Source of the DNA: Escherichia phage JMPW1
Sequence record: NC_041874.1
Length of the DNA stretch: 49,628 nucleotides
Strand: one strand, 5' to 3'
The notes beneath the pieces are model-generated. The model had not been told where the DNA came from, made no database searches, and saw only the letters and a program-made list of their open reading frames with translations. Numbering within the stretch: position 1 is the stretch's first letter; every line of letters starts with the position of its first letter. A program made the position numbers and the translations under genes. This document shows positions 1,130 to 48,291 of this stretch, piece by piece.

Positions 1130-1324
1130 ATGGAAACGCAAATTGACGTAGTGGTTGTTCAGCGAGACTCAACTCATGAAAAGGGTCTGTTTAAGAAGGG
1201 AACGGAAATCACGATCGACCTTGAGGATATGGTTGCTTATCACTCTGGACTTACCTGGAACGTGGTGCGCGTAGGCAGCGACTATAAACTCAAAGGCTTT
1301 AACACTTACTTTGCAGAGGCTTAA
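1130..1324 (+). CDS. hypothetical small protein (64 aa)
   Basis: ORF downstream of cassette with RBS GAGAAAACGAAG. Confidence 0.5.
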   Translation: METQIDVVVVQRDSTHEKGLFKKGTEITIDLEDMVAYHSGLTWNVVRVGSDYKLKGFNTYFAEA

Positions 1325-1326
1325 TC

Positions 1327-1797
1327 ATGACAACCATTACCGTATTTCTGGCTAAAGATGAGATTGATGGCGAAATGTCATTCTTCGCATTTGAGCACAA
1401 AACCGGATCGCACTGGCATATGTATAGCCGCTACACGGTTATCGATATCAACTCATACCGCGCAGGCTCACTTACTGAAAAGCTGGGTTGCTTCATTGGA
1501 GCTATCAAGGTGAACAATGGCTGCGAGTGGGCAGATGAGCACGAAGAGCGCCGCATGTGCAATATGATTAACCCGGTCTATCTTGAGTCGTTCGAGCTTG
1601 ATGCTGATGTGAACATTAAGGTGAGAAAGTCTGGTGAGTTATTGCCAGGGATGCGTGTGCTGACTGGTTACTCGGGCCGTAAGGTGTGGCGCACCGTATC
1701 GAAGATTCGCCAGCGTTCTGCAACATGCTACAGCGTATTCTTTGAAGATGGCTGGAATATGATGTCCGGTAGTGAGGTGAAGTATCTCACCAAATAG
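1327..1797 (+). CDS. hypothetical protein (156 aa)
   Basis: ORF; its TAG stop is the TAG of the next box. Confidence 0.55.
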   Translation: MTTITVFLAKDEIDGEMSFFAFEHKTGSHWHMYSRYTVIDINSYRAGSLTEKLGCFIGAIKVNNGCEWADEHEERRMCNMINPVYLESFELDADVNIKVRKSGELLPGMRVLTGYSGRKVWRTVSKIRQRSATCYSVFFEDGWNMMSGSEVKYLTK

Positions 1798-1843
1798 CAC
1801 GAATTGTTAAAACCGGATCGGGGTATCTTGCTATAGTTACCCC
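1794..1843 (+). promoter_or_regulatory. Early promoter cassette: box + IR GGGGTA/TACCCC enclosing -10 TATAGT
   Basis: Box ATAGCACGAATTGTTAAAAC 1794-1813; IR 1820-1843; CCAATCAGAGGA RBS follows. Confidence 0.6.
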
Positions 1844-1875
1844 ATCGAAACGAGATACCAATCAGAGGAATAACC

Positions 1876-2106
1876 ATGTCAATCGTCAAGAACCAGCAAG
1901 CAATCGATTAAACCAATAACAACCGCTTTGCTATTTTCATCACATCGATAGGTCGCCGATTTGCAGTCAAAGCCGTTCCGGGTGGATACAAAACCTACAT
2001 GGAAGATAAAGGAAAGTGGGTGTGGTGCGAAAACCTTGCAAACTTCCTAGTCTGGAATGCAGACCTCCAGGGCTTTGATGATATCAGCACCTTAATTGAG
2101 GAATAA
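1876..2106 (+). pseudogene. Small gene with in-frame TAA at codon 12 (1909-1911); frame continues open to 2106
   Basis: ATG 1876 sits behind a full cassette and RBS; same frame reopens after TAA and runs to TAA at 2104-2106. Confidence 0.3.
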
Positions 2107-2112
2107 ATAATT

Positions 2113-2340
2113 ATGCCACGTTACAATAAACAGACTAAACTCACCCGCGTAAACGGGCACATGATTCCGGCTGAATCCACTCACTACGCAATGGGCGCAA
2201 AGCACGGAGTCTATTTCAAGTGGCGCGGTCAATGGAACTTCACGGCGGTTAGTAATTTCTACATGCGCGTCCCAGGTATTGACCCGCAGACGGTCGTAGA
2301 GGACTCAATCGGCAACAACAAGATCGAGGTGCTAAAATGA
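2113..2340 (+). CDS. hypothetical protein (75 aa)
   Basis: ORF with RBS GAGGAATAAATAATTATG. Confidence 0.5.
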   Translation: MPRYNKQTKLTRVNGHMIPAESTHYAMGAKHGVYFKWRGQWNFTAVSNFYMRVPGIDPQTVVEDSIGNNKIEVLK

Positions 2341-2447
2341 ACTTCAATACAATTGCTTTATGGTCTGCCGTCTGGTTCTTCTGTATGGGTCATGTCATGG
2401 TTGGAATCGTAGTTATGCTGCTACTGTGTGCGGGAGCGTTCGAATGA
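2337..2447 (+). CDS. putative small hydrophobic membrane peptide (36 aa)
   Basis: ATG overlaps upstream stop (ATGA); translation MNFNTIALWSAVWFFCMGHVMVGIVVMLLLCAGAFE is one TM-like segment. Confidence 0.35.
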   Translation: MNFNTIALWSAVWFFCMGHVMVGIVVMLLLCAGAFE

Positions 2448-2617
2448 TGCGCATTCTGATTTGCATGATGGCGGCGGTCGCACTGGCTATCCTGGTAGTG
2501 TCCGGCTGCGGAGAGGCCAAAGAGCGATGCCATGAAACCGGAAACCAGGTTACTACTTTCGTGATGGTTGGCAACGTATTGCTACCAATCACATCAAATG
2601 AAATCACTTGCGAATAG
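2444..2617 (+). CDS. putative small lipoprotein (57 aa)
   Basis: Signal-peptide-like N-terminus ending in lipobox LVVSGC; start overlaps stop of preceding peptide. Confidence 0.4.
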   Translation: MMRILICMMAAVALAILVVSGCGEAKERCHETGNQVTTFVMVGNVLLPITSNEITCE

Positions 2618-2626
2618 GATGTTAAA

Positions 2627-2818
2627 ATGGCTGATTTTATGCACCAAATGATTGCAGTATTCAAAGGTAGTGATGACCAGGAGGTGAAAGAGTGCTTTAC
2701 TGTAGACAAGCCTTATAGCGCATCGCTAACCAGCTTCGGGAATATCTCATTGCTTGATGATAACGGCGACCCCTGGGTATTCGACGAAGACACTGATTGC
2801 TTCGAAATTAAAGAATAG
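2627..2818 (+). CDS. small highly acidic protein (63 aa)
   Basis: ORF rich in D/E; stop TAG shared with next box. Confidence 0.5.
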   Translation: MADFMHQMIAVFKGSDDQEVKECFTVDKPYSASLTSFGNISLLDDNGDPWVFDEDTDCFEIKE

Positions 2819-2864
2819 CACTTTTTGTTAAAACTCAATATCGGGGTTGCGCTATAGTAACCCC
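2815..2864 (+). promoter_or_regulatory. Early promoter cassette: box + IR GGGGTT/AACCCC enclosing -10 TATAGT
   Basis: Box 2815-2834; IR 2843-2864; -10 2853-2858. Confidence 0.6.
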
Positions 2865-2889
2865 ATCGACAACAAACGAGGACACTAAC

Positions 2890-3378
2890 ATGAAAATCAA
2901 ATTGCTTTGCACTGGCGGTTACAAGGGCTTTACTCGCGACCTGGAAGCGGATCCTATCGTGATTGATGCGGTGAAGTGTGATGATAGCCTCGGCGGCTAC
3001 CGCGTGAAGGTTGACGACCTGGTGAAAGCTGGCGTGTACGATCTGGGCTATGGACTTTCGGTTAGCCCGGTAGTTGGTCCGGCAGACTTCAACGAGAAGG
3101 ATGGAACGATGTTCTTCTTCGAATGGGAAGTCCAGGCAAATCCTAAGCCGCGCAAGGTTCGTCTTCTCAGTAATGGCGGCTACCCGATGCGTCCAGGTTA
3201 TGAGAATCGCACATTCCCGGTTATCGTTGACTTTGAAGAAATCACCGCACACTTAGCTTATATCAACGGTGAACAGCTTCATGCTGTTGGATTCGTGGGA
3301 TGTATGAATCAAGAGGCGCTATGCTTCTTCCATTGTAAAGCCGAGCCGTTCGATATTGAGTGCGAGTTAGTATACTAA
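2890..3378 (+). CDS. hypothetical protein (162 aa)
   Basis: ORF after cassette; stop TAA is first codon of next box (TAAGCAC). Confidence 0.55.
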   Translation: MKIKLLCTGGYKGFTRDLEADPIVIDAVKCDDSLGGYRVKVDDLVKAGVYDLGYGLSVSPVVGPADFNEKDGTMFFFEWEVQANPKPRKVRLLSNGGYPMRPGYENRTFPVIVDFEEITAHLAYINGEQLHAVGFVGCMNQEALCFFHCKAEPFDIECELVY

Positions 3379-3423
3379 GCACGAATTGTTAAAAGGGGAT
3401 TTGGCCTGACTGGTATAATCCCC
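3376..3423 (+). promoter_or_regulatory. Early promoter cassette: box + IR GGGGAT/ATCCCC enclosing -10 TATAAT
   Basis: Box TAAGCACGAATTGTTAAAA 3376-3394; IR 3395-3423; -10 3414-3419. Confidence 0.6.
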
Positions 3424-3449
3424 GCATAAACCACTAAGAGGAAAGCATC

Positions 3450-3956
3450 ATGTTAAAATTAGAAGACGTAAAATTCCCGATTAAATTTATCAGCCTAGGT
3501 TGCGGTGAAATTACATTCACCAGTGAAGATAAAGGCAAGTGGGACAATGATAAAATGTCTCAGCTTAAGTTGGATTGGTTTATCAATCGGCACAATGAAG
3601 TAAATCCTGAAAACTCAGCCAAGAAGGATTACCATTACATTATTAGTGGTAGTCAGGATGCGTACGAAAAGTATGATGGTTGGAAAATTGTTCGATCAAT
3701 CTTCCACCCCGCAAAGCCAGAAATTAAACCGATGTTACAATGCGCTCAGATCGAGAACATTCCATTGAGCGCGACGCTAAAAGGAGTGCAGCTTGATGAT
3801 AAATCCTGGCTTGAAATAACCGCCACGCCGAAAACTATTGAAGTGCACGACGATATCGTCACTCTTCTATTGCATTACGGCAGCTTTAAGCACAAAGCGG
3901 TATCAGGTGAAATCAGCATTAAGCGCGGAACACTTGTGCGCTATGAGGTGAAATAA
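3450..3956 (+). CDS. hypothetical protein (168 aa)
   Basis: ORF with RBS AAGAGGAAAG. Confidence 0.55.
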   Translation: MLKLEDVKFPIKFISLGCGEITFTSEDKGKWDNDKMSQLKLDWFINRHNEVNPENSAKKDYHYIISGSQDAYEKYDGWKIVRSIFHPAKPEIKPMLQCAQIENIPLSATLKGVQLDDKSWLEITATPKTIEVHDDIVTLLLHYGSFKHKAVSGEISIKRGTLVRYEVK

Positions 3957-4101
3957 TGGCTGCATGGGTTTTGATTATCTTAATGAGTACCGGGCCGGAT
4001 CACGTATACATGGAAAGTCAGCAATCATGAAACAAGGTACGGGAAGTAATTGCAGAGAATAAGCCGTTCGGATATGAAGTAAAAACGATGTGCGTTAAAC
4101 G

Positions 4102-4151
4102 ATAGCACGAATTGCTAAACCTTCCGCAAGGCCATTTGATATAGTGGCCTT
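4102..4151 (+). promoter_or_regulatory. Early promoter cassette: box + IR AAGGCCA/TGGCCTT enclosing extended -10 TGATATAGT
   Basis: Box 4102-4120; IR 4128-4151; -10 4140-4145 preceded by TG. Confidence 0.6.
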
Positions 4152-4185
4152 ATTGAAGCAAGGCAACCAATCAGAGGAATCAGCT

Positions 4186-4392
4186 ATGGCTACACGACTA
4201 ACTCAGTGGCAGATTTACGACAAGGCCTCACGCCTTCGTGAATCGCTTCGCGGACTGACGCCGAATGACCGAATGGAGATTATCGGGCACGCATTGCACG
4301 AACTAACATCTCAGGACGTAATCTATCATTCATGCGGCAATAAATTCTGGAACGTGACATTCGAGGTAAAGAAAGATGAGCAAAACTCATAA
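4186..4392 (+). CDS. hypothetical protein (68 aa)
   Basis: Start placed at ATG 4186 after CCAATCAGAGGA motif; the upstream ATG 4144 lies inside the promoter hairpin. Confidence 0.45.
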   Translation: MATRLTQWQIYDKASRLRESLRGLTPNDRMEIIGHALHELTSQDVIYHSCGNKFWNVTFEVKKDEQNS

Positions 4393-4663
4393 GTTAAAAA
4401 TCGCCCCGATACATTTCATTGGTGTAATGAACGGAACCAAAACGGCAGAGTTCCGCATCAATGACCGCAACTTCCAGGTTGGTGATATCCTTGAGCTACG
4501 CGAGTTCGATCGTGACGACTTTACCGGGTGGGAAGTTCACGCCAGGGTGTCCGATGTTACAGACGTGACGCCATACATCAATCGCGGTTATGACGAGCAA
4601 GAATGCGACTTCACGCAATACGTGATGTTATCAATCAAGCCTTACAGGAAGGTTAGACCATGA
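4376..4663 (+). CDS. ASCH/DUF3850-like (PUA-fold) small protein (95 aa)
   Basis: Motif GTKTAEFRINDRNFQVGD recalled as typical of DUF3850/ASCH proteins. Confidence 0.4.
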   Translation: MSKTHKLKIAPIHFIGVMNGTKTAEFRINDRNFQVGDILELREFDRDDFTGWEVHARVSDVTDVTPYINRGYDEQECDFTQYVMLSIKPYRKVRP

Positions 4664-5298
4664 AATTTGAGTGCGTATCAAGTAGCGGATCTGGTTTTAA
4701 GTGGGGAAAAACTTACAAAGGTGTTCGCGTAAATGATGACAGCTTCATCATTACTGATGAGAACGGTTGCAACGTGAACGTTGTACGGCGTCACGAATAT
4801 CAGGAAATTTTCCTGCCTTATGGCGGTAGCTCAAAATATATCTTCCATCGAATCGTGGATGGTGTTAAATTTAACGACGTAATCGAAGCAATCAACCAAC
4901 TGCATAATAAAGAGGTAAAATTTATGAAATTCGAATGTATCAGCGACAACACTAAAAAATTTACCGTTGGAAAAATTTACAACGTTCCTTCTGAGCACGC
5001 TAAGCACACTTTAGCGCTGACCGACGACACAGGCTGCCAACGCATTGCAACCGTGACGCACAATGGCGAAGGTCTTCGCTGGAACAGCGGCGGCACTAAG
5101 TTCGCAACTTTCGGTAAGAAGCGCAAGCGCAATTTCCGCGTCAACGGCAAGATCAACACCAGCAAGATTAGCAACGTCAAGCCTATTAATGTTGACCACA
5201 AGCCAGAGCTTGATCTTAAAGGCAAGGTGGATATTCCTGATATGGCTTTAGCGATCCTTATTCTTGTTGCTCTAATTTCTATCATGCTCATCATGTAA
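4660..5298 (+). CDS. tandem-domain protein with C-terminal TM anchor (212 aa)
   Basis: Two internal repeats both starting MKFEC..; hydrophobic C-terminus; member of dispersed paralog family. Confidence 0.55.
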   Translation: MKFECVSSSGSGFKWGKTYKGVRVNDDSFIITDENGCNVNVVRRHEYQEIFLPYGGSSKYIFHRIVDGVKFNDVIEAINQLHNKEVKFMKFECISDNTKKFTVGKIYNVPSEHAKHTLALTDDTGCQRIATVTHNGEGLRWNSGGTKFATFGKKRKRNFRVNGKINTSKISNVKPINVDHKPELDLKGKVDIPDMALAILILVALISIMLIM

Positions 5299-5305
5299 TT
5301 TTAAC

Positions 5306-5339
5306 GGGGAATTGGCTCTGAGCGGTTCCCCTTTCTTTT
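5306..5339 (+). terminator. putative intrinsic terminator
   Basis: Stem GGGGAA/TTCCCC followed by TTTCTTTT. Confidence 0.4.
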
Positions 5340-5446
5340 GGAGAAAACACTATGCCAGACTTTTCTAACTGGAATAACGAGCCGCCATCATTTCAGGAGT
5401 TGCTATTCTGCCTCCTGGTCCTGACATTATCTCTTAAGGGTGTTTT

Positions 5447-5665
5447 ATGGCTACTATCATAACAGCAGAAGATGCAGCACGCGACGCAGTGGAAGGAATG
5501 CGCCCAAATACCTCCAGAATAGCACACTACTACAAATCTGAGGTGTCGGCAGTGCAATTGGTCAACGAAATTTTAAGGCTACCACAAGTCGATTCAGCGC
5601 GCGTGGTGACGTGCTTAAAAAATTATTTTTGCATCGCTATTAAAACGAATAGCACGAATTGCTAA
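5447..5665 (+). CDS. hypothetical protein (72 aa)
   Basis: ORF; stop TAA lies inside next box. Confidence 0.3.
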   Translation: MATIITAEDAARDAVEGMRPNTSRIAHYYKSEVSAVQLVNEILRLPQVDSARVVTCLKNYFCIAIKTNSTNC

Positions 5666-5696
5666 AACCTATCAAGGGGAATGCGCTATGATTCCC
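5649..5696 (+). promoter_or_regulatory. Early promoter cassette: box + IR GGGAAT/ATTCCC enclosing -10 TATGAT
   Basis: Box 5649-5668; IR 5677-5696. Confidence 0.55.
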
Positions 5697-5722
5697 ATGC
5701 ACCAACAAACGAGGAAGCACTC

Positions 5723-6169
5723 ATGAAACACTTAATTTGCATTGAAACGCCTAACGACCAGTACACCCTGCACGGCATTGGAATGTTCAAAGGTCACTAC
5801 ATGACAGCAAGTATTCATGATTCGCGTTGCGTCAATGGCGATCTGATGATTACGTCAAAAGAAGTAACTCCGTACATTATGCAGAATCTTGGCAATAACG
5901 AATATATGGCCTACGGATGCAATGCGGTGTACAAGCATATCAAGATCAGAAAACGCGTTGTTCGCGCATTCAAGAAAATTGCAATGAAACAATGGAAGAT
6001 GAGCAAGAAAGATGCTGGACGCTGGGCGCGTAACGTTGCAGATTCATACTTCTACCGTAACGGTGAGTCCTGCCACTTCCTTATCGATGAACTTATGGAA
6101 AACTACGGCGGCGACTTCAGTCAGGGTGGCTTTGACGCTTGGGCTGACTACGAGGTCGATTACTGGTAA
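5723..6169 (+). CDS. hypothetical protein (148 aa)
   Basis: Start placed at ATG 5723 after RBS GAGGAAG; upstream ATG 5681 lies in promoter hairpin. Confidence 0.5.
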   Translation: MKHLICIETPNDQYTLHGIGMFKGHYMTASIHDSRCVNGDLMITSKEVTPYIMQNLGNNEYMAYGCNAVYKHIKIRKRVVRAFKKIAMKQWKMSKKDAGRWARNVADSYFYRNGESCHFLIDELMENYGGDFSQGGFDAWADYEVDYW

Positions 6170-6218
6170 TAGCACGAATTGCTAAAACTTGCTCAAGGGC
6201 ATTTGATAGAATGCCCTT
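6169..6218 (+). promoter_or_regulatory. Early promoter cassette: box + IR AAGGGCA/TGCCCTT enclosing extended -10 TGATAGAAT
   Basis: Box 6169-6188; IR 6195-6218; -10 6207-6212; CCAATCAGAGGA RBS follows. Confidence 0.6.
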
Positions 6219-6252
6219 CGTTGAGTTAAGCAACCAATCAGAGGAATAAATC

Positions 6253-6864
6253 ATGGATAAAATTACCATTTGGGGCCAGACAATCAACCTGTTTCTCGGC
6301 ACGCGCCGCGTAGCAATCTTTGACTTTGATGGAACACTTAGCGATGGATCTGGTCGACTTCACCTGCTACCTACAAAGGATTTGCACTTAACTGAAAGCT
6401 GGTCCGAGTTTAACCGCGCGGCAATATTTGACAACCCTATCCAAAGCACGATCGATGTGATGAACTCTATGTATGCCGCTGGTCATCATGTGATCATTTT
6501 AACCGGGCGAAGTGATGAGGTGCGTTACGCATCTGAGTTGTGGCTTAAGCATCACGGCGCTCGATATGATTACCTGATTATGCGACCATACACCGATAAC
6601 CGGAAAGACACAGTAATGAAAGAAGAGGCGGTGCGCGCGATCGGCATTGATAACATTCTGGCGGCCTGGGATGACTCACCGCAAATTATTCCATTATTCC
6701 GCTCACTTGGAATAACCACTTACGCTGTAGTTGACTATGGCGATAAAGTTCACGATCATTTAAAATCTCACGGGGTAGATGAGGTTTGCAATCATGAACC
6801 ATCTGAGCCGCTACCGCCATTTGGTGAGAAAATTTGCATTAAGTGCAAGGAGTTATTGAAGTGA
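6253..6864 (+). CDS. HAD-superfamily phosphatase (nucleotidase-like) with C-terminal CxxC
   Basis: HAD motif I FDFDGTL near N-terminus; later ILTGRSD and WDDS motifs. Confidence 0.6.
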   Translation: MDKITIWGQTINLFLGTRRVAIFDFDGTLSDGSGRLHLLPTKDLHLTESWSEFNRAAIFDNPIQSTIDVMNSMYAAGHHVIILTGRSDEVRYASELWLKHHGARYDYLIMRPYTDNRKDTVMKEEAVRAIGIDNILAAWDDSPQIIPLFRSLGITTYAVVDYGDKVHDHLKSHGVDEVCNHEPSEPLPPFGEKICIKCKELLK

Positions 6865-6972
6865 ACCTATACGAATTTATTGCAGCACATCCGGTACTAA
6901 CAGTTATCATTCTGTTAATCATAAACTCCACCATCATCAATGTGGCGAAATTATTTTTAGGGAGATACTGAC

Positions 6973-7545
6973 ATGAAAACAGCTATCATTTTAAACGGTG
7001 CGCCTGGCGCGGGAAAAGACACTATAGGGTGCATCCTGGCTGACACTTACGATCATGTAGCGCTACGCAGCTTTAAAGCTCCAATGTTTGAGATTGCCCG
7101 AGCAATCCTGGGTGAGACTAATTTTGAGTATTTCATGTTCTTGTATGAGGACCGTCGCTATAAAGAAGAGCCAGCATCAATCCTGAACGGTAAAAGCCCG
7201 CGCCAGTTTATGATCTGGATTAGCGAGGAGGTTATCAAGCCGCAGTTCGGAAATCGCTTCTTCGGTATGCGAGCGGAAAGCAAGGTGAAAGAGTCTCACT
7301 CCCTTTCGGTATTTACTGACGGTGGATTCAAAGACGAAATCTTGCAGATGATTGAAGGTGAAATCCAGGTCAAGCTATGTCGAATCCATCGCAACGGTTG
7401 CAACTTTGACAACGACAGTCGCGACTACATCTATCTTGACGATATGATCGGGGTCAACGGTTATCAGGAATGTGACTTCTTCTCTGTCGAAGGTCATCCA
7501 GAAATTACCGCTCAGCACATAGCCGCCACGTTCATCAACAAATAG
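6973..7545 (+). CDS. P-loop kinase, deoxynucleoside monophosphate kinase-like
   Basis: Walker A GAPGAGKDT and LNGKSP motif resembling phage T4 gp1 dNMP kinase (from memory). Confidence 0.55.
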   Translation: MKTAIILNGAPGAGKDTIGCILADTYDHVALRSFKAPMFEIARAILGETNFEYFMFLYEDRRYKEEPASILNGKSPRQFMIWISEEVIKPQFGNRFFGMRAESKVKESHSLSVFTDGGFKDEILQMIEGEIQVKLCRIHRNGCNFDNDSRDYIYLDDMIGVNGYQECDFFSVEGHPEITAQHIAATFINK

Positions 7546-7589
7546 CACGAATTGCTAAAACGTCGGTGGGGTGACTTGATATAGTTACC
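7542..7589 (+). promoter_or_regulatory. Early promoter cassette: box + imperfect IR enclosing extended -10 TGATATAGT
   Basis: Box 7542-7561; IR about 7568-7589; -10 7580-7585. Confidence 0.55.
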
Positions 7590-7617
7590 TCATCGACAAC
7601 GAAGAGAGAAAATCGAA

Positions 7618-7827
7618 ATGATGGTATCAACTGATAAGTTTTTCACTTGCACTAAAACTTCTGAAGTATTCGAACTGGTTCATACTGATAATGGTGACTT
7701 CATGCATGACGGTTGCGACGTTTTCATTGAAGTGAAAGAAAGCGACTATGACTATGGGGTTTATTATAACCCGGCAGTGAACACTCAGTTTTTTACACCG
7801 ATCGAAGAGGAAGGAGAAGAAGCATGA
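7618..7827 (+). CDS. small acidic protein (69 aa)
   Basis: ORF after cassette. Confidence 0.5.
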   Translation: MMVSTDKFFTCTKTSEVFELVHTDNGDFMHDGCDVFIEVKESDYDYGVYYNPAVNTQFFTPIEEEGEEA

Positions 7828-8168
7828 TCACGATTAACCTGTCAGATAAACAAGCGCGTGAAATCCTCGATACTATCGGCGAACAGCTTCACGTAAAAGT
7901 CGCTACCGCTGAGATTCTTAACCAGATCGAAAGACAGCTAACCCCGGTGTCGACGAATCAGGCTGAGTTCTCAATCTGGAAAAGCGAGCGAATCCTGCCA
8001 AATATCATCAAGGCATGGAAGCGCAAGAATAAAAAAGAAATCAATGTTGATGACTTATTTTCTGATGAATTAAGTCCTTCAAAGGTTGCTCAATATCAGT
8101 TGCGATACATGGAATCAGTTTGCAATCAGGTTTTAAATGTCAACTTTTCATTCGGGAGTGGTAAATAA
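7824..8168 (+). CDS. hypothetical protein (114 aa)
   Basis: ORF overlapping upstream stop (ATGA). Confidence 0.5.
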   Translation: MITINLSDKQAREILDTIGEQLHVKVATAEILNQIERQLTPVSTNQAEFSIWKSERILPNIIKAWKRKNKKEINVDDLFSDELSPSKVAQYQLRYMESVCNQVLNVNFSFGSGK

Positions 8169-8398
8169 TGTTTGGTTTAAGTGAAGCGGAATGGAACGTG
8201 GTAAAGCGCGCGGCGAAGGAATTGAATAAATTCGTTAGCGGAATGAAGAAAGAAGATCGCAAAAACGAAAAGATTATGATTGATGTGATCTCAACTCATC
8301 ACAAAAAGGTTGAGCTACTCATCGACCGCTACAAGTTTGTATGGACCGCCGGATATATTGCAGGGCGCGTAGGTAACAAAGAGGGTGATTACGAATAA
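8168..8398 (+). CDS. hypothetical protein (76 aa)
   Basis: ORF, translationally coupled (TAATG). Confidence 0.5.
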   Translation: MFGLSEAEWNVVKRAAKELNKFVSGMKKEDRKNEKIMIDVISTHHKKVELLIDRYKFVWTAGYIAGRVGNKEGDYE

Positions 8399-8601
8399 TG
8401 GCTAACTTACCGAAGAAAGGCGATCAGGTTCGATGTGTTACATCACGCAATGGTGATGCTTTCTCAGCGGGATGCTTGTATGACGTTGAAAAAGTAAGTA
8501 AAGCAAAGAGACTCGTATTTGTATACGGAGACGATGGAAATATTCATGAGATTGACTACCCGCAGGATATTACTAATGGCCAATTTGAAATTAATGATTG
8601 A
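8398..8601 (+). CDS. small paralog-family protein (67 aa)
   Basis: ORF; shares K..C..F.VG..Y.V...DDG pattern with other small genes. Confidence 0.5.
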   Translation: MANLPKKGDQVRCVTSRNGDAFSAGCLYDVEKVSKAKRLVFVYGDDGNIHEIDYPQDITNGQFEIND

Positions 8602-8927: not shown

Positions 8928-8943
8928 ATTAATTATTCGAAAG

Positions 8944-9093: not shown

Positions 9094-9094
9094 C

Positions 9095-14754: not shown

Positions 14755-15231
14755 ATGGCACAAATTAATGCATCTTATCAGCGAGATATGGCGATTGCGC
14801 TTCCGGGTATGGTTGCGGATACTTCAAAGTACAATATTGACGGCGCTTGTGTCGTTAATGAAGGTGATGTTCTTGTTGGCGCTGCCGTACAAGTTGTTCA
14901 AGCTCAGGCGGTTGATGGTCATAAGTTGGTTAAGGCTCTTACTACCGGAACCACTCCTTACGGCGTGGCAATCCGATCTCACTGGCAGACTGTTAACGCT
15001 CAAAATCAGATGATTTACGAAGATGGCGGCGCTATCAACGTGATGACTTCAGGCCGAGTATGGATGCTTTCCAAATCCACCGAAGCACCAACTTTCGGCT
15101 CTGCCGTTAAACTTGATGTTGATGGTCAGGAAAAATCTGATGGCACGATCGAAACAACCTGGACCTACGCTGGCGGTTGGACTAAATACAAAGATATTCA
15201 GCTTGTTGAGGTTCAGTTGCATCAACTGTAA
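14755..15231 (+). CDS. putative head decoration-like protein (158 aa)
   Basis: Paralog of next gene (shared YNIDGACV..G....G.AVQVV motif). Confidence 0.4.
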   Translation: MAQINASYQRDMAIALPGMVADTSKYNIDGACVVNEGDVLVGAAVQVVQAQAVDGHKLVKALTTGTTPYGVAIRSHWQTVNAQNQMIYEDGGAINVMTSGRVWMLSKSTEAPTFGSAVKLDVDGQEKSDGTIETTWTYAGGWTKYKDIQLVEVQLHQL

Positions 15232-15293: not shown

Positions 15294-16061
15294 ATGGCTT
15301 ACGAAAATTTGTTCTTGCGCCCCGCGTGTCCGGGAAATATTTCTGATACTTCAACCTACAATATTGATGGAGCTTGTGTGGCTCAAGGTGACATTGGGTT
15401 CGGCTCAGCGGTTCAGGTTGTAGGCATCGTTGACGGTGTAAAAGTTGTGGCGGCGCTTCCTGATGGTGGAACTCCTTACGGTATCGCTTTCCGTTCCCAA
15501 TATGAACACCTGAGCGGTAAAATCCTTGACGGTGAAGTGTGCAACGTCGTTTCTCACGGTCGCGTATGGACTCTTACTTCTCTTGGTGAGGCTCCCAGCT
15601 TGTTCTCAAAGTTACAGTTTGGGTCTGGTGGAGTTGTTACTGGTGGATCTGGTTCCGCAGGTTGGACATTTGCGGGTGGCTTTGTTAAGCATGAAGATGG
15701 CTACATCATTGAGGTTCAGGTGAAACAAAATGCTTTCATCGCTCCACCGCCACCGCCCCCTGTCGTTCTTGTTGAATCTGCTACAATCGCCACTGACAAG
15801 GAAAGCCCTCAACCAAACAATGTTACGATCCAGTGTGTAGCTAATGCTCTTCCGGATAATGCAACCGATAAGACTGGTAAATGGTCAATCGACGCTACCA
15901 ATATCGCCACTGTCGATCCGGACTCAGGTCTTGTAACTCCTGTTGGTGGAGAGGTAGTCGGTGATTTCAATATTACCTGGACGGCTAACGATGCCAGCAA
16001 GACGACGGCAACTATTGCTTATCGCGTAGAAGCAGTGCCAACGCCAGAGGTTGATGCATAA
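15294..16061 (+). CDS. putative decoration protein with C-terminal Ig-like (Big_2-like) domain
   Basis: N-terminus paralogous to 14755 gene; poly-Pro linker APPPPPPVV then Ig-like region. Confidence 0.4.
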   Translation: MAYENLFLRPACPGNISDTSTYNIDGACVAQGDIGFGSAVQVVGIVDGVKVVAALPDGGTPYGIAFRSQYEHLSGKILDGEVCNVVSHGRVWTLTSLGEAPSLFSKLQFGSGGVVTGGSGSAGWTFAGGFVKHEDGYIIEVQVKQNAFIAPPPPPPVVLVESATIATDKESPQPNNVTIQCVANALPDNATDKTGKWSIDATNIATVDPDSGLVTPVGGEVVGDFNITWTANDASKTTATIAYRVEAVPTPEVDA

Positions 16062-41183: not shown

Positions 41184-42335
41184 ATGTCACAAGCTAAAAT
41201 CACTACCGAGCAACTTGTCGAAGAGCGCATGAACGGCCTTACACTTCGCGAGATCGCGGAAAAGTACGGTATGCATATTCGAACTGTTGAGGCTCGACAC
41301 GCAAAATTGGCAAAAGAAGGCCACTTTCACGGCAATGAGCATGTTGCTAAAAACGTTCCTGAAGGCTTCATGGTAAAAGGCACATCAACAATGATTCGCG
41401 GTGATGGGACTGAGGTCGTGCGATGGGTTAAGACCGATCAGGACCGTGAGAAGATTGCAGCTATGATGGAAGCTGCACGCATTGCATTTTGTGAAGACTT
41501 GCCGCGAGCAAAGCCAACTGAGCTGCTCACATCGCAAGGTCTTACAACCTCTATTGGAAAGCTGGCACTATACCCGGTGTTCGATCTTCACATTGGCGCG
41601 CTTGCTCATAAGCATGAATGTGGAGAGAACTACTCTACCGACGTAGCGGAAAAAGTGCTTAGCGACTTCTTTAATTACGCGATCGATATTGCTCCGAACG
41701 CAGAGAAGGCCGTTCTTTTAATCGGCGGTGACTTCCTTCACTCGGACGGTCTTGATGCTGTTACCCCGGCAAGTGGTCACGTTCTGGATCAGGATTCACG
41801 ATATGCAAAATTGGTGCATGTAGCTATTAGATCTGTTCGTCGCGCTATCGACAAAATGCTACTGAAACACAAAGAAGTCGAGGTCCAGGTTATCGAAGGG
41901 AACCACGATCAGTCTGGGATGATTTGGCTGCGCGCTGCAATGTCGGCATATTATGAAGACGAGCCGCGAGTATTCGTTGACGTTAGTCCTATGATTCTGC
42001 ATAAGACTCGTTGGGGAAATACCTTGTTGGGATACACTCACGGGCACACTATGAAAAAGGCAGAGACTCGACTCGCAGCTATGGCAGCAGATTTCCGCGC
42101 AGATTTTGGTGAAAGCAAATACGTGTACACGCATAGCGGTCACTGGCATCACCAGACAATCACTGAGCACTCACTCGGTATTGATGAGGTTCACGGCCAG
42201 TTAGGCGCGAAAGACGCATACGCAGCACGAGGAGGGTGGCGCTCGTATCGCCAGGCGGCTGTAATTGTTTACGATAAGCAATTTGGGGAAATCGGTCGTT
42301 TCATCTATCGTCCAGAAATGACAGGATCGCACTAA
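41184..42335 (+). CDS. HTH-fused calcineurin-like metallophosphoesterase
   Basis: N-terminal HTH-like LTLREIAEKYGMHIRTVEARH; phosphoesterase motifs FDLH, GGDFLHSD, GNHD, GHWHH. Confidence 0.65.
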   Translation: MSQAKITTEQLVEERMNGLTLREIAEKYGMHIRTVEARHAKLAKEGHFHGNEHVAKNVPEGFMVKGTSTMIRGDGTEVVRWVKTDQDREKIAAMMEAARIAFCEDLPRAKPTELLTSQGLTTSIGKLALYPVFDLHIGALAHKHECGENYSTDVAEKVLSDFFNYAIDIAPNAEKAVLLIGGDFLHSDGLDAVTPASGHVLDQDSRYAKLVHVAIRSVRRAIDKMLLKHKEVEVQVIEGNHDQSGMIWLRAAMSAYYEDEPRVFVDVSPMILHKTRWGNTLLGYTHGHTMKKAETRLAAMAADFRADFGESKYVYTHSGHWHHQTITEHSLGIDEVHGQLGAKDAYAARGGWRSYRQAAVIVYDKQFGEIGRFIYRPEMTGSH

Positions 42336-42369
42336 TTGATAAAAACTCCCGAAGGGATTCGGGCATAGT
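42326..42369 (+). promoter_or_regulatory. Promoter cassette: box variant + IR CCCGAA/TTCGGG + -10 CATAGT
   Basis: Stop TAA of upstream gene inside box; IR 42348-42363. Confidence 0.5.
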
Positions 42370-42398
42370 AACCACATCGAAAACAAAGAGGCTATATC

Positions 42399-42575
42399 AT
42401 GAAGCTAGTTAAGTGCATCCGAAATGATTCCAAAACGCTTCCATTCCGCGTAAATCAGATCTATAGTGTTGGTTATGATTTCGGTGGTGGATTATTTGAG
42501 GTTTACGACGGGAGAGGCTCGGCAATCCATGTTCCTCTGAACGGTCACTACCTGGAATTTATTGAGATAGATTAA
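42399..42575 (+). CDS. small paralog-family protein (58 aa)
   Basis: ATG 42399 after RBS AAGAGG; MKLVKCIRND...VGYDFGGG...VYDGRG matches dispersed family. Confidence 0.5.
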   Translation: MKLVKCIRNDSKTLPFRVNQIYSVGYDFGGGLFEVYDGRGSAIHVPLNGHYLEFIEID

Positions 42576-42693
42576 CAATAGCATTCATCACCTTACAGGC
42601 TGGCATGATTTAGATGCTGGCCTTTTTGCGTTGTGTCAAATAAATTTGAAGGTTAAAATCAACTCACTTGTTCAAAAAATATATGGTGAGATT

Positions 42694-42909
42694 ATGAAAG
42701 AATTTTTAACCGCAGCTACGTCTAGCACGGGCGGGGCTTCATTAGTGGGGGCGGCGACCGGGCAGCTTTATATTGCTGGCGCTACATTCATTTGCTTTCT
42801 GCTTTTTGGTGCTTGGGGCGCATACTGGAAGTATCGTGATAGCAAGGCGATTCAGGAAGCGTTAAACGATGGCGATCTAAATAAGGCACTTAAGATCAGG
42901 GGGAGATAA
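42694..42909 (+). CDS. holin (pinholin-like, two TMDs)
   Basis: 71 aa; Gly/Ala-rich TMD1, hydrophobic TMD2, charged C-terminus; directly upstream of endolysin. Confidence 0.55.
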
Positions 42910-43397: not shown

Positions 43398-43798
43398 TGA
43401 AACTGAAGAAAACGTGCATTGCGATTGCAGTGGCTGTTGGCGTTATTTCCCTATCCGGTTGTTCGACGGCATCTGCCCTGAGCGGTTTAATCGGATCTAA
43501 ACCGGAAGTTACAGCACAAATCGGAGAGGAGAACACAAAGCAATTAGCAGGAGTAACCGCAAAATCCGAAGATAAGCGAGATGTTAAAGTTGAGAAGTCC
43601 AATGTAGGAAAGATTGACTCTTCCTTGAAGAAGTCAATTGAAGTGTCAACCATTAAGGCTAACACGGTTAACGCTGAAAGCATCACAGTAACAAAACCGG
43701 AAAACTGGTACGATGCTATCGTTGGCTGGATTCTCGTTTTTATCGGTCTATTGCTGGTTTATTTTTCACTTCGTAAGGACGAAAAAAAGGAGGCTTAG
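43394..43798 (+). CDS. unimolecular spanin (u-spanin)
   Basis: N-terminal lipoprotein signal with lipobox LSGC plus C-terminal TM segment; overlaps endolysin stop. Confidence 0.6.
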
Positions 43799-43812
43799 CC
43801 TCCTTTGTTATT
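43783..43812. terminator. bidirectional intrinsic terminator between convergent blocks
   Basis: GGAGGCT-T-AGCCTCC stem flanked by A7 and T-rich tracts. Confidence 0.6.
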
Positions 43813-43919
43813 TGTACCTTTTTACGTTAAGTAGTAACTCCCCATCCTGGTCGCAAAGATTATGCTCGCTTTCGTTACTGGCCCTCATTGAAGTGAGCAA
43901 CAGACTCAACAACCCTTGC

Positions 43920-44327
43920 TCAAATTCTTCTTTCGTAAGCTGGAGCCTTGCGCACAATTCGACGTTCCGATCTATCAATGTTTCTACGTTCTCCAAACAA
44001 ATCCTCATCACTCATCTCTCCAATGTGCATCATTTCCCACGTATACCGATTGTTGTAGCCATCAATACACATCAGCTTCATCATTACCGGGCGCTTAATC
44101 TTTCCCTTGCACCAGTAAAACCCATCCCTGCAATCAAGATAACCCTCAGTTACACAGCGTGAGCAAAACTCCTTAGATAGCGCGCTTGTAAATTCACGGC
44201 GAGTCATTCCTGCGGCCTTAGCAAATCGCTCACTTTCCTTGTGGGCGTATATAAATTTCGCTATGTGCTGTCGAGTGTATTTGTCGTAACCTTCGCAGAA
44301 CCTGAACAGATCTAAAAGAAGAAGCAT
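43920..44327 (-). CDS. Cys-rich hypothetical protein (135 aa), possibly zinc-binding
   Basis: Multiple Cys (CEGY, CSRC, C..C); last gene of minus-strand operon. Confidence 0.45.
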   Translation of the reverse strand: MLLLLDLFRFCEGYDKYTRQHIAKFIYAHKESERFAKAAGMTRREFTSALSKEFCSRCVTEGYLDCRDGFYWCKGKIKRPVMMKLMCIDGYNNRYTWEMMHIGEMSDEDLFGERRNIDRSERRIVRKAPAYERRI

Positions 44328-44331
44328 ATTA

Positions 44332-45900
44332 TTAACCCATCAGTCGAGGGTTGATGAAAACAATATCATCAATCCGGCAAGTGTAGTTCATCTCTTCGAG
44401 CGTGATCAGCAGGCTGTCGATTCGCTCAGATACTTTCTGTTGACCGTTGAACGGCGTAACGTTCCGGCACTTTGCAACGATGCTATGAATAGGTGCGCGG
44501 CCTTTGTTCTTCTTCGCGATCTCAGTGATAACATCAATCAGCTTACGAGATTCAGCCTCATCACCTGCATACCCGGCAGCGCTGGCAGATGACAGGTAAG
44601 TCCTGGAAAGCTCATTGAAGATCATGATCGCTTCCTGCATTGTTTCAAGGTCAATCTCACGATTAGATCGGTTCGGTGATTCACCCTCCCAATTCTTGAT
44701 CGTGTGAAGAACTGAAGCAATGCGCAAAGCGTGCTTATCGAACTTACCGAGATGACCGCGTAGCATTGAGTGAGAGTATTTGCCCCCGGCGGCGAAATCA
44801 GGCTCCATCGCCTGGCGAGCAAGGTTTAATTCACGCATAGCGTTACGGCTTACAGAGAGAACGACGTTGTCCTCCTTCATAATGTTGTGCACGAGTCTGT
44901 AATATTTGCTAACCAGTCCGCGATCTACTTCCTTATACAGCGCATCACCATTTTCATCGCAAAGAATACGAGTACCTAAAAGCGGTTCCTCTCGAACCAG
45001 GAGGAAACGCTCAGATACACCGATACCGCGCTGGCCTGCGTCCATGATACCCTTGATTGTTTCATCCTGCGCAATGACGCAGATCGAACCGACCGGGCAA
45101 AGAGATAAGTTGTTGTCCTGATTTGAACGCGCGACCTCCATATGGTTTTTATCCCACGCCTTAAGAATAAGCTCGCTGTTTGATTTCTTATCAGAACCGC
45201 CATAAGTCAGACCAAGCAATGTATTGATTGCCGTTGCTTCATCAGATATTACGGAAAAGTGGCCTTGAACAGCCGCAACTTTCGCAAGACCTTCAGGTGT
45301 AGGATCTGATACCGCGAAAACAATATCAGCCATCTTCTTGATCTTTTCTTCCAGTTTTTCCTTGTCTTCGTACAGAGCCGCCGTCGTGTTACCCTTTGGA
45401 TCGTTTTTTATTTCTTTCTCGACCTGACGTAGCTGACTGGTTAAACGTATGCGCTCCTTTTTGCGCTCTTCATTCAGTCGCTGAATCTCCGCACGCATAG
45501 GTGTAATCGCCGCTGAGTTAATAGCGGACTTACCTGTTGATGGTGGCTGGCTGATTACCATGTAAAGCGCGGTCGGCTGTTCTTCGCCGTGATATTGCAC
45601 CCAAAACTTCCCGAGCATAGCGGCTGAGATGCACCCAATGAAATGAGCGTACGCAGACGAAACAGGGAACTGTACAGACTCAGCCTTTGCCTTTGCATAT
45701 TCGAATACCAGGTTATCGCCACCTAACGAAATCAGCGGGAACTTATCGTTTCCACTGTTGATATCGATCGGATCTTGCCAAAACGAAACTGAATCCCCAT
45801 AGCTGTTTTCACGAATTGCGATCGACACCGGATTAACTCCAGTGCTATTTGCGATCTCAATAATCTGTTGGTAATTCAATTTTGGCTTAATATTAAACAT
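44332..45900 (-). CDS. large hypothetical protein with Walker A-like PPSTGKS motif (about 522 aa)
   Basis: Start moved to ATG 45900 (RBS AAGGAG); ORF-track start 45963 lies inside the box. Confidence 0.5.
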   Translation of the reverse strand: MFNIKPKLNYQQIIEIANSTGVNPVSIAIRENSYGDSVSFWQDPIDINSGNDKFPLISLGGDNLVFEYAKAKAESVQFPVSSAYAHFIGCISAAMLGKFWVQYHGEEQPTALYMVISQPPSTGKSAINSAAITPMRAEIQRLNEERKKERIRLTSQLRQVEKEIKNDPKGNTTAALYEDKEKLEEKIKKMADIVFAVSDPTPEGLAKVAAVQGHFSVISDEATAINTLLGLTYGGSDKKSNSELILKAWDKNHMEVARSNQDNNLSLCPVGSICVIAQDETIKGIMDAGQRGIGVSERFLLVREEPLLGTRILCDENGDALYKEVDRGLVSKYYRLVHNIMKEDNVVLSVSRNAMRELNLARQAMEPDFAAGGKYSHSMLRGHLGKFDKHALRIASVLHTIKNWEGESPNRSNREIDLETMQEAIMIFNELSRTYLSSASAAGYAGDEAESRKLIDVITEIAKKNKGRAPIHSIVAKCRNVTPFNGQQKVSERIDSLLITLEEMNYTCRIDDIVFINPRLMG

Positions 45901-45920
45901 CACAATAAACTCCTTAGTTG

Positions 45921-45974
45921 ACGGTGTGAATGATACACCGCCAATGGTACACGCGTTTTGCAAAAAGTGCTATT
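45921..45974 (-). promoter_or_regulatory. Promoter cassette, minus strand: box + IR CGGTGT/ACACCG
   Basis: Minus-strand box ATAGCACTTTTTGCAAAA (plus 45957-45974); hairpin plus 45921-45945. Confidence 0.5.
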
Positions 45975-45976
45975 GG

Positions 45977-46393
45977 TTATAAGTATTTGGCCTCAAAGGT
46001 TGTGCCATCTGCGATACTAAAACCGATCTCTTCGCGAAATAATGTCCAACGGCATCCGTCCTCATCAAAGATGTAACCAGCTACGCCGCCGAGAGCGCGA
46101 CCGCTTTCTACCTGGTAACGCTTTCCAACTTTGAATGATTTTTTCATCGGGTTGCGATGGTCAAGTCCGGTGCACTTTAGCGTCTTTGTTTTCAACTCGG
46201 TGAATTTCGCGAAGAAGATTTCATCAGTTCCGTGAATCTGTAATTCATCATGCTTTTCAAGTTTTAAATACTTCCCGCATTTTAGTTTTACTTCGCGAGT
46301 ACCATCATAGCGCTCACGACCTTTATACAAATTGTTTACTTCGAATCCTGTGATCTTGTCTGCGGAAGTGCATTTCAGTTTGATGGATTTCAT
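45977..46393 (-). CDS. paralog-family protein, two tandem small domains (138 aa)
   Basis: Repeats containing KCT...F.VG.RY and DEDGC; RBS CCAATCAGGAG. Confidence 0.5.
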   Translation of the reverse strand: MKSIKLKCTSADKITGFEVNNLYKGRERYDGTREVKLKCGKYLKLEKHDELQIHGTDEIFFAKFTELKTKTLKCTGLDHRNPMKKSFKVGKRYQVESGRALGGVAGYIFDEDGCRWTLFREEIGFSIADGTTFEAKYL

Positions 46394-46409
46394 GGCGCTA
46401 GCTCCTGAT

Positions 46410-46473
46410 TGGTTATCTTGAATAAGGCCACTTTATCAAATGACCTTACGGCAATATTAACAAATCGTGCTAT
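46410..46473 (-). promoter_or_regulatory. Promoter cassette, minus strand: box + IR
   Basis: Minus-strand ATAGCACGATTTGTTAA (plus 46455-46473); IR AAGGTCA/TGGCCTT. Confidence 0.5.
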
Positions 46474-46686
46474 TTACCAGGGAATATAATTGTCGTCGTC
46501 CTCATCAATATCATCACCAGGTAACTCGAAGTCTGGATTATATTCGCTTTCTGCGTCCATATCCATATTCCCTAGAGCGTCATCAAGCGTAATTTCTTTA
46601 TACGCAACCTTTATACACCATTCCGCACTAAGCCCAGCATCAAGAGCGGCAAAATAACGAGTCCAGAAATTATCCTGCTCCATCAA
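46474..46686 (-). CDS. small acidic protein with SSB-tail-like C-terminus (70 aa)
   Basis: C-terminus DIDEDDDNYIPW resembles SSB acidic tip (DDDIPF). Confidence 0.45.
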   Translation of the reverse strand: MMEQDNFWTRYFAALDAGLSAEWCIKVAYKEITLDDALGNMDMDAESEYNPDFELPGDDIDEDDDNYIPW

Positions 46687-46911
46687 TCAACCCCATGAAT
46701 TAATGTAAATTGAGTTAGCCTCAAGCGTAGCGCGCACATCCGCATCTGTTGCATTTACTAAGCGCGAGCCTGGCGTGCTGCCGATAACGTTATTACCGTT
46801 ACGAGCCTTAGTTACCGTCATTGAAATAAAACCGGAAGACTTATCCATTTTGATAACTACACGGCCTTTAGCGTTCAGGTGCGTGATGATATTCTCAACT
46901 TTAATGCTCAT
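46687..46911 (-). CDS. hypothetical protein (74 aa)
   Basis: ORF downstream of minus-strand box. Confidence 0.45.
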   Translation of the reverse strand: MSIKVENIITHLNAKGRVVIKMDKSSGFISMTVTKARNGNNVIGSTPGSRLVNATDADVRATLEANSIYINSWG

Positions 46912-46972
46912 TTTTAATTCCTTTGTTTCGTTTGGTGTGGGAGTAATATACCTTACCCCCTATTGTATGTCT

Positions 46973-46990
46973 TTAGCAATTCGTGCTATC
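46973..46990 (-). promoter_or_regulatory. Box, minus orientation
   Basis: Plus-strand TTTAGCAATTCGTGCTAT is reverse complement of ATAGCACGAATTGCTAAA. Confidence 0.5.
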
Positions 46991-47128
46991 AGTACTCAGA
47001 AATTACTTTGCACTCTTTGATTGTTCCACCCAAAACTACTTTCTGCATCATTGCTTTTTGTTGGCTATCGTAAACGCGAACATTTTTTACTCTGTTAAAT
47101 TTGCCAGTATAGAAGGTGTGAATATAAA

Positions 47129-47452
47129 TCATTTTTTACCGTCCCACGTTTGATATGCCGTAACCAGGTTAATGCTGTGGTCGAACTCGTCAACGCTAAG
47201 CGATCCGATTCTAACAAGCTCTTTGTCGTGCTTAATATCAATCATCCGGCTATATGGATGGCCTGGCACATACTTGAACAGTCGTTTGCTGTCGGCAATG
47301 TCTGCGTTGATTCCGTAGAATCGGCCTACCGCCGCCTTAACGCGCTCCATGATGTTTTTTTCGTGGATTGCCGCCGCGTTATTTAGTGCCGCAACCGTGC
47401 TTCCGTTAATCTTCGGTGACTTCGTTGTGATTTTGTAAGTGTGGTTCATCAT
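47129..47452 (-). CDS. hypothetical protein (107 aa)
   Basis: Start trimmed to ATG 47452 after RBS AGGGGGA. Confidence 0.45.
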   Translation of the reverse strand: MMNHTYKITTKSPKINGSTVAALNNAAAIHEKNIMERVKAAVGRFYGINADIADSKRLFKYVPGHPYSRMIDIKHDKELVRIGSLSVDEFDHSINLVTAYQTWDGKK

Positions 47453-47465
47453 TCCCCCTAACCAG

Positions 47466-47666
47466 TCAGGATAGCTTTCGCGCTTCATCAATGATAACAG
47501 GCTCAAGGCGTTCAAGTCGAACGCGGAACGAGTTCATAAATCCTTCGTTGTTCTTCAGTAGTTCGAATGCGTCTGTAGCTTCAATGGCGCTATTCCCCAT
47601 GTAGGCAATTACTTTTTTCTGAGTCTTACGTGAGATCGCCACTACGCGGTAAATATTATCACTCAT
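47466..47666 (-). CDS. hypothetical protein (66 aa)
   Basis: Start trimmed to ATG downstream of upstream gene stop. Confidence 0.4.
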   Translation of the reverse strand: MSDNIYRVVAISRKTQKKVIAYMGNSAIEATDAFELLKNNEGFMNSFRVRLERLEPVIIDEARKLS

Positions 47667-48030
47667 ACAATGCCTCTTTAACACGATCCGCTACACATGA
47701 GTTAACGGTGATTGAATAGTTAGCCACGCCCCATAATGCAATATTGCCAAGCTCGGTACGCATTGATGGATTGTTTAGCTGAATGATTGTCTCGCCAGTA
47801 TCTTTATCGACGAAGCGAGACACGCCAGAATGGTCCACCACGCGCGTTACTCGGTTCACGCACTCCATTGCATCACTTACACCATAATAGGCGGTTAGGG
47901 CGGCTCTCACGGCCTTCTCTTGCTTGTTGTAAATCTTGCGAGCGATGTTCTCGATCGCTACGCTTTCTTTCTCGTCAGTCTGGATTGCCGTGCTGGCTGA
48001 GAAGTCCAGATCTGTGAACTGCTTAAACAT
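47659..48030 (-). CDS. hypothetical protein (123 aa)
   Basis: Start ATG 48030 after RBS GAGGAAATAATC. Confidence 0.45.
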   Translation of the reverse strand: MFKQFTDLDFSASTAIQTDEKESVAIENIARKIYNKQEKAVRAALTAYYGVSDAMECVNRVTRVVDHSGVSRFVDKDTGETIIQLNNPSMRTELGNIALWGVANYSITVNSCVADRVKEALYE

Positions 48031-48055
48031 GATTATTTCCTCGTTTGCTGCTGAT

Positions 48056-48105
48056 GGGATGACTATACCAGCCATCCCGGATGCGCGTTTAGCAAAAAGT
48101 GCTAT
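48056..48105 (-). promoter_or_regulatory. Promoter cassette, minus strand: box + IR GGGATG/CATCCC enclosing extended -10 TGGTATAGT
   Basis: Plus-strand TTAGCAAAAAGTGCTAT 48089-48105; hairpin 48056-48078. Confidence 0.6.
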
Positions 48106-48291
48106 TTAGAATTTTACTTCCTCAACAAGCTCAACCATTTTATAACCCAGGCGATATGAGTCGCCGAACAACAACAGACCCATAAATTCATCGTTGGTTA
48201 TCGACTCCTTACCAACAGTTTTAAGTTCTCCGTTGTGAATCACAGTATCGCCGATCTTGATTTCTGATTTATGCACTAATTTCGTTTTCAT
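48106..48291 (-). CDS. small protein (61 aa), distant paralog-family member
   Basis: ORF; weak similarity to small beta-rich family. Confidence 0.4.
   Translation of the reverse strand: MKTKLVHKSEIKIGDTVIHNGELKTVGKESITNDEFMGLLLFGDSYRLGYKMVELVEEVKF

Follow-up and report, generated by a model that had tools for sequence, protein, structure and literature searches.

Small SH3-like barrel domains of Escherichia phage JMPW1: a multi-copy family and its probable relationship to the CapRel trigger Gp54

Direct sensing of a phage protein by a bacterial immunity protein is, to our knowledge, documented in only a few cases, one of which is Gp54 of phage Bas11. It is a direct trigger of the toxin-antitoxin defence protein CapRel(SJ46) (PF25180; PDB 9axb, 9erv). 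According to the accessible text of its description (PMC11578894, Nature 2024), Gp54(Bas11) binds CapRel directly with sub-micromolar affinity, forming a hybrid beta-sheet, and its barrel topology is called very rare by the authors. In the same text the protein is non-essential, with possible inhibition of another defence system suggested; triggering of CapRel is not seen with the SECphi27, Bas5, and Bas8 homologues; and the orthologues discussed are those in related phages, not relatives within one genome. A second curated family, DUF7244 (PF23896, SH3 clan), has been described as a "standalone SH3" in the lysis module of Drexlerviridae (PMC13164509, IJMS 2026). Here we describe a family of small beta-barrel domains encoded by Escherichia phage JMPW1 (NC_041874.1), a genome in which both of these curated families have a representative. 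The whole stretch analysed, 49,628 nucleotides, is referred to as the window.

The genes compared with these systems are listed in Table 1. Member C is a full-length DUF7244 protein at the published position. A term search of the text of the DUF7244 paper gave no occurrence of "paralog", "Gp54", "CapRel", or "promoter", so that the paper appears to treat DUF7244 as a single lysis-linked gene, whereas JMPW1 carries at least five further genes related to it, all of them in the accessory arms. As for Gp54, the D-type barrels share its extra strand and long beta1-beta2 loop, by which they also differ from SH3, KOW, Tudor, and FeoA barrels; no sequence-level relationship of the members to the latter was detected. 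In contrast to Gp54, members other than the ORF at 1130-1324 (H) miss the Pfam Gp54 model and D2 shows borderline sequence similarity, B resembles a canonical SH3/KOW barrel with five strands, two of the proteins (A and D) have two domains, and A carries a membrane-type tail. Two members were thus already known from the curated families Gp54 and DUF7244. What is new is that these genes form one multi-copy family with two-domain and membrane-tailed forms, and that the Gp54 fold recurs within it. The finding adds members and architectures to a kind of protein that is already known; it does not define a novel type of system.

Sequence evidence for the family

An initial annotation of the window had proposed a dispersed paralogous family of small beta-rich domains from a motif seen in six open reading frames (ORFs), which reads K..C, 6-9 residues, F.VG..Y.V, and then V.D[DE].G. 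All six ORFs were found in the translations, and in the related record PQ362312.1 a coding sequence, in each case annotated "hypothetical protein", lies at the position of every ORF discussed here. BLASTP comparison of the listed ORFs with each other and with all 485 ORFs of the window gave nothing below E=0.1, a result that, under the pairwise-similarity criterion set in the initial annotation, would have refuted the family. Significant homology appeared when family alignments were built from homologues and compared profile to profile with hhalign. The strongest links were A1-A2 (P=4e-8), C-D1 (P=1.6e-5), A2-D1 (P=2.4e-5), A2-D2 (P=4e-5), A2-C (P=1.3e-4), and A1-D1 (P=1.5e-4). The homologue search for B yielded 16 close relatives only, and B was therefore deepened with divergent homologues from phage records. 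Profiles deepened with a few such homologues and with an exhaustive search linked E to A1 (P=2.8e-6, 55 columns; null minimum 0.021), F to D2 (P=5.3e-7, 44 columns; null minimum 0.027), F to D1 (P=1.5e-4), and B to F (P=1-2e-4), matched nulls for such pairs lying at 0.0015 to 0.035. Overall, A1, A2, B, C, D1, D2, E, and F were connected at P from 4e-8 to 2e-4. The minimum P was 0.0024 in a first set of 120 reversed or column-shuffled controls and 5.6e-4 among all controls of this kind (about 360).

Searches with hidden Markov models (HMMs) gave a concordant picture. Single-domain HMMs run against the window ORFs surfaced two genes that had not been listed before, E and F. When one family at a time was left out, the omitted A, C, D, and E each ranked first (E values of 3.7e-5, 2e-5, 6e-6, and 3e-3, respectively), and B and F were among the top three in every search. 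The full-family HMM returned no additional member among the window ORFs, the next ORF being at E 0.47. Judged from these profiles, the family comprises six ORFs (A-F) with eight domains of 58-70 residues each, and we consider it real with high confidence.

The opposing view is that the pattern reflects chance or a general sequence grammar of small beta-hairpin proteins. It can point to the failure of pairwise BLASTP to link any two ORFs significantly and to the links between the core profile and B (0.0013), A2 and B (0.003), and H and D2 (0.0013), whose P values the best shuffled controls can equal. Against it stand ten independent profile pairs at P<=2e-4, with none of the roughly 360 controls below 5.6e-4, the first rank of four omitted members among 485 ORFs, and profile alignments that stay in register across 40-60 columns. 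We regard this view as scarcely credible, and chance similarity as essentially excluded.

Table 1. Members of the barrel family and other features of the window (positions in nucleotides unless stated otherwise; the last column gives phage records with a tblastn homologue among the 50,697 searched)
Feature	Position	Strand	Description	Place after a box	Records
A	4660-5298	+	212 aa; two tandem barrels, basic linker, C-terminal hydrophobic tail	third gene after box at 4102	66
A1	4660-4857 (residues 1-66)	+	barrel of A		
A2	4924-5124 (residues 89-155)	+	barrel of A		
A tail	5242-5295 (residues 195-212)	+	hydrophobic tail		
B	8398-8601	+	67 aa; single barrel	fourth gene after box at 7542	101
C	42399-42575	+	58 aa; Pfam DUF7244 (PF23896)	first gene after box at 42326-42343	
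D	45977-46393	-	138 aa; two tandem barrels	first gene after box at 46456-46473 (-)	822 (many with the D2 half only)
D1	46190-46393 (residues 1-68)	-	hypervariable		
D2	45980-46189 (residues 69-138)	-	strongly conserved		
E	49254-49466	-	70 aa; not in the initial annotation	first gene after box at 49526-49543 (-)	23
F	2627-2818	+	63 aa; not in the initial annotation	fourth gene after box at 1794	62
H	1130-1324	+	64 aa; Gp54 homologue; linked to the family by structure only; probably a divergent member, nearest to D2	first gene after box at 1055	213
G	48106-48291	-	61 aa; non-member	second gene after a box	
DUF3850/ASCH-type gene	4376-4663	+	small PUA-like protein, labelled "RNA-binding protein" in related records		
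Terminator-like hairpin	5306-5331		follows A		
Terminator-like hairpin	42597-42623		directly 3' of C, before the holin gene		
Box, example	1055-1072	+			
Box sites	1055, 1794, 2815, 3376, 4102, 5649, 6169, 7542, 9373, 23781, 25862, 35264, 36806, 39315, 40338, 42326	+			
Box sites	104, 16081, 19843, 36340, 45956, 46456, 46972, 48088, 48552, 49526	-			
Hairpins at boxes	1075-1106, 1814-1845, 2838-2866, 4120-4153, 6190-6220, 42348-42363		also at other box copies		
Leaders	4155-4192, 6222-6259				
Leaders	46398-46425, 49470-49500	-			
Left arm	1-9.3 kb	+	packed with small genes of unknown function		
Structural gene block	~9.4-35 kb		from annotation of related record		
Right arm	~44-49.6 kb	-	packed with small genes of unknown function		
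Shared 56-nt stretch	14797-14852		in 14755-15231		
Shared 56-nt stretch	15324-15379		in 15294-16061		

The motif was seen in both domains of A, in B, in C, and in both domains of D. G and H had been included as looser members; G proved unrelated, and for H the sequence signal is unclear while structure links it to the family (see below). Member C scored 97.5 bits on PF23896 against a gathering threshold of 27 bits and was the only member to pass; A (17 bits) and D (16.3 bits) remained below threshold, and B, E, and F gave no match, indicating that A, B, D, E, and F are relatives outside the curated family rather than DUF7244 members. DUF7244 was nevertheless the most frequent weak Pfam match among D-family members (8/55). 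Pfam matches above threshold were restricted to C, H, and the DUF3850 gene adjoining A, and NCBIfam gave no match for any member.

G was rejected as a member: its hhalign P was >=0.05 to every member, and it ranked 43rd in the leave-one-out search of the 485 window ORFs. It belongs to a separate orphan family that is widespread in phages, carries an invariant FGDSYRLG motif, and was recovered from 37 viral contigs; no Pfam, NCBIfam, or PDB relative was found for it. The homologues with this motif share 45-64% identity and occur in many unrelated viral contigs, including ones of 105 kb and 461 kb.

Four further ORFs of phage IME347 and one of the window carry an F.xG..Y ... DDxG pattern. The family HMM matched the IME347 ORF at 1853-2053 with an E value of 2.8e-6, and its matches to 7618-7827 (+) of the window and to 7719-7928, 7442-7645, and 49207-49437 of IME347 did not reach significance. 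More than the eight domains counted may therefore belong to the family.

Fold of the members and the link to Gp54

The structures of D and B were predicted by AlphaFold2 with the family alignments. The D model (pLDDT 93.1) shows a pair of six-stranded barrels in which the beta1-beta2 loop is long, and the B model (pLDDT 91.7) is all-beta with five strands. Superposition on SH3, KOW, or Tudor domains placed the predictions in the SH3-like small beta-barrel fold class. C has been published as an SH3-clan protein (PMC13164509). Together with the profile-level homology, these two confident all-beta models bear out the description of the genes as a dispersed paralogous family of small beta-rich domains. 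The initial annotation had further called multi-copy small domains unusual in a compact lytic genome. This is overstated, as small phage proteins with an SH3-like barrel are very frequent, judging from the 1422 BFVD matches (E<=10) of the B model. These matches were also considered as evidence across families and set aside: the IME347 match probably corresponds to the B-position gene of that phage, so the B model gives no cross-family evidence.

The best PDB match of the D model was Gp54, and the fit of the D model to 9axb was clearly closer than its fit to ordinary SH3 domains, which was not so for B. In the window, Gp54 itself is represented by H, which scored 122.7 bits on PF25180 (threshold 27 bits) and matched 9axb/9erv at E 1.2e-13. 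No family member besides H matched the PF25180 model at E<=1. Conversely, the sequence profile of H gave no signal to members besides D2, and H ranked 18th in the leave-one-out search. With a slightly deeper profile, hhalign aligned H with D2 over 46 columns at P=0.0013, none of 61 nulls being at or below 0.058. This alignment places FKKG of Gp54 on FKVG of D2, and G24 of Gp54 falls on the nearly invariant G90. The escape mutation G24D is reported to abolish activation of CapRel and to weaken binding by a factor of 20 or more (PMC11578894). Overall, the small SH3-like barrel occurs in the family in both a canonical and a Gp54-type form, and, from one model and a borderline profile score, Gp54 is probably a very divergent relative of the D2 type.

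Genome context, box elements, and distribution

In essence, the window covers the entire genome of a T1-like phage. Over its first 20 kb, identity is 100% with Enterobacteria phage vB_EcoS_IME167 and 99% with Escherichia phage vB_Henu5_2 (Drexlerviridae, Tunavirus), and the window is as long as the full genomes of these phages (49.5-49.8 kb). All members except C are housed in two divergent accessory arms. The members do therefore sit in both arms, as had been described; this split is, however, mostly due to the point chosen for opening the sequence, since the arms are joined in records opened elsewhere, e.g. OR861627.1. Next to member A, the stop of the DUF3850/ASCH-type gene overlaps the start of A, suggesting translational coupling. 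Outside the arms, two adjacent ORFs of the head-gene block (14755-15231 and 15294-16061) have a 56-nt stretch in common near their 5' ends (79% identity), which suggests a local duplication.

Each member had also been described as having its own cassette, most lying behind a box and being spread by the cassette mechanism. The box, ATAGCAC-N4-TGNTAAA, occurs in 26 copies on both strands of the window, compared with 1.4 expected by chance. It heads most transcription units of both accessory arms, whatever they encode, plus several others. As shown in Table 1, 4/8 of the beta-barrel genes considered come first after a box and the others second to fourth, so that members are as often internal as first genes and no specific association of the box with the family is seen. 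The similarity between member loci stops at the box, and there is no enrichment of members directly behind boxes. The box is thus a general element rather than a cassette of this family, and neither its supposed ownership by each member nor the spreading mechanism is borne out.

The box probably serves as a general promoter/operator-like element of the phage. Its core is palindromic (TAGCA-N5-TG(C/T)TA), and a TATAGT-like hexamer, often preceded by TGn, lies about 22 nt 3' of it. A standard sigma-70 (-35/-10) scan did not call the box sites; the spacing of about 22 nt between TTGnTA and TATAGT, too long for a -35/-10 pair, accounts for this, and the box is accordingly only a putative promoter. 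A literature search for promoter or transcript maps of T1-type phages found nothing relevant. The palindrome resembles the operator of a dimeric protein, and its centre lies about 42 nt 5' of the presumed transcription start, where class II activators bind. Each box copy has its own short hairpin between the box and the TATAGT hexamer, the 3' arm overlapping or following the -10-like hexamer. The arms vary between copies and stay complementary (GGGGTA..TACCCC, AAGGCC..GGCCTT, CCCGAA..TTCGGG), suggesting a function at the level of DNA or of read-through RNA. In several box-driven units a conserved leader, ..AACCAATCAG(A)GGA.., is found just 5' of the start codon. The segments 4102-4192 and 6169-6259 are 79% identical over 91 nt, and the genes downstream of them are unrelated.

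The family is patchy among T1-like phages, and its membership changes between related phages (Table 1). The gene for C has been reported in 188/522 Drexlerviridae, keeping its position between exonuclease and holin wherever present (PMC13164509). An exhaustive HMM search with the D family in 1.84 billion proteins returned D-type clusters only, with no bridge to other families; these formed just 27 clusters at 50% identity, indicating that the D family is confined to this phage group. Across the D family, identity to the window copy averages 41% for D1 and 85% for D2. The phage T1 homologue of A consists of the A2 barrel and the tail without A1, so A1 is a lineage-specific tandem addition. IME347, which belongs to another genus, has D, C, a one-domain A-like gene, and a gene at B's position, as well as one member absent from the window and several weaker candidates. 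A D2-type barrel with about 44% identity was also seen in 21 records named as Campylobacter phages (e.g. MG065670.1, phage A121, 47.7 kb). These matches are odd, as the family is otherwise confined to enterobacterial phages, and the records could be mislabelled or contaminant T1-like genomes.

Possible functions and significance

The best overall explanation of these data, which we hold with about even confidence, is a multigene family of SH3-like barrels that serve as host-binding accessory modules. The members would be non-enzymatic, cytoplasmic protein-binding modules made during infection. Each might engage a different host (or phage) partner through edge-strand (beta-sheet) pairing, as Gp54(Bas11) clamps the sensor domain of CapRel(SJ46), and act as a host-takeover or counter-defence effector; such binders would therefore also be potential triggers of host immunity. 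A may be tethered to the inner membrane by its hydrophobic C-terminal tail, which had been noted in the initial annotation and was confirmed in the translation, and D would combine a constant barrel (D2) with a variable one (D1). The repertoire would change by gene duplication, by domain gain and loss, and by rapid divergence of one barrel.

Reading the members as binding modules draws on their small size, their few conserved polar motifs, the absence of a signal peptide, and the direct binding of a host protein by Gp54. Neither a signal peptide nor a catalytic motif was seen in the translations of the listed members. The earlier suggestion of a host-takeover or anti-defence role appears reasonable, and the predicted structural link to the CapRel-binding Gp54 strengthens it; the assignment of a binder or counter-defence function is nevertheless tentative, at best an even call and perhaps slightly less. 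Several points weigh against it. The high conservation of D2 across more than 800 phages is more in keeping with a conserved housekeeping role than with an arms race. Nor can protein binding be read from the fold by itself, since nucleic acids and peptidoglycan are also among the ligands of SH3-like barrels. Expression early in infection is suggested by gene position and promoter-like boxes, and the experimental data within the family are restricted to Gp54.

Other functions were weighed on the same evidence. The barrels could be nucleic-acid-binding domains of the KOW, Tudor, or Sm type that modulate transcription, translation, or RNA metabolism of host or phage, for example by mimicry of the KOW domain of NusG/Spt5 or through binding to RNA. 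The structural neighbours of B and the ASCH gene adjoining A speak for this, and we consider it unlikely but worth keeping in mind. For C, a role as a cell-wall-binding SH3 aiding the endolysin has been proposed in phage KanT1; the other members would then be unrelated in function. In JMPW1, too, C lies between the DNA repair exonuclease and holin genes, a place occupied by no other family member. The published proposal is, however, based on gene position and fold class only. C has neither a signal peptide nor a membrane segment, although host peptidoglycan lies in the periplasm; its gene is flanked by a separate box directly 5' and by a terminator-like hairpin before the holin gene; and its closest relatives in the same genome (D1 and A1/A2) are in the accessory arms, far from the lysis genes. 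A lysis accessory function is thus rather improbable. The least probable of these functions, in our judgement a very remote one, is that of virion or assembly components. A2 matches phrog_14592 ("virion structural protein") at E 5e-9, and D2 does so weakly, but this PHROG label is an unverified annotation, every member lies outside the structural block, and the membrane-type tail of A does not suggest a virion context.

Returning to the host-binding modules, the family supplies candidates that may trigger or inhibit other defence systems, for study in the well-developed T1/BASEL phage system, as well as a reason to re-examine the lysis assignment of DUF7244. With its one- and two-domain forms and its hypervariable and conserved barrels, it also provides a natural variant series for studying binder evolution. 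A more speculative idea, which we think doubtful, is that T1-like phages keep a diversifying repertoire of one barrel scaffold, each copy tuned to a different immunity or housekeeping protein of the host, with D1-like specificity modules and a D2-like constant part. If this were true, Gp54 and CapRel would be just the first example to come to light of host sensors that evolved recognition of the scaffold, and the published "lysis SH3" and "CapRel trigger" would be two faces of one counter-defence family.

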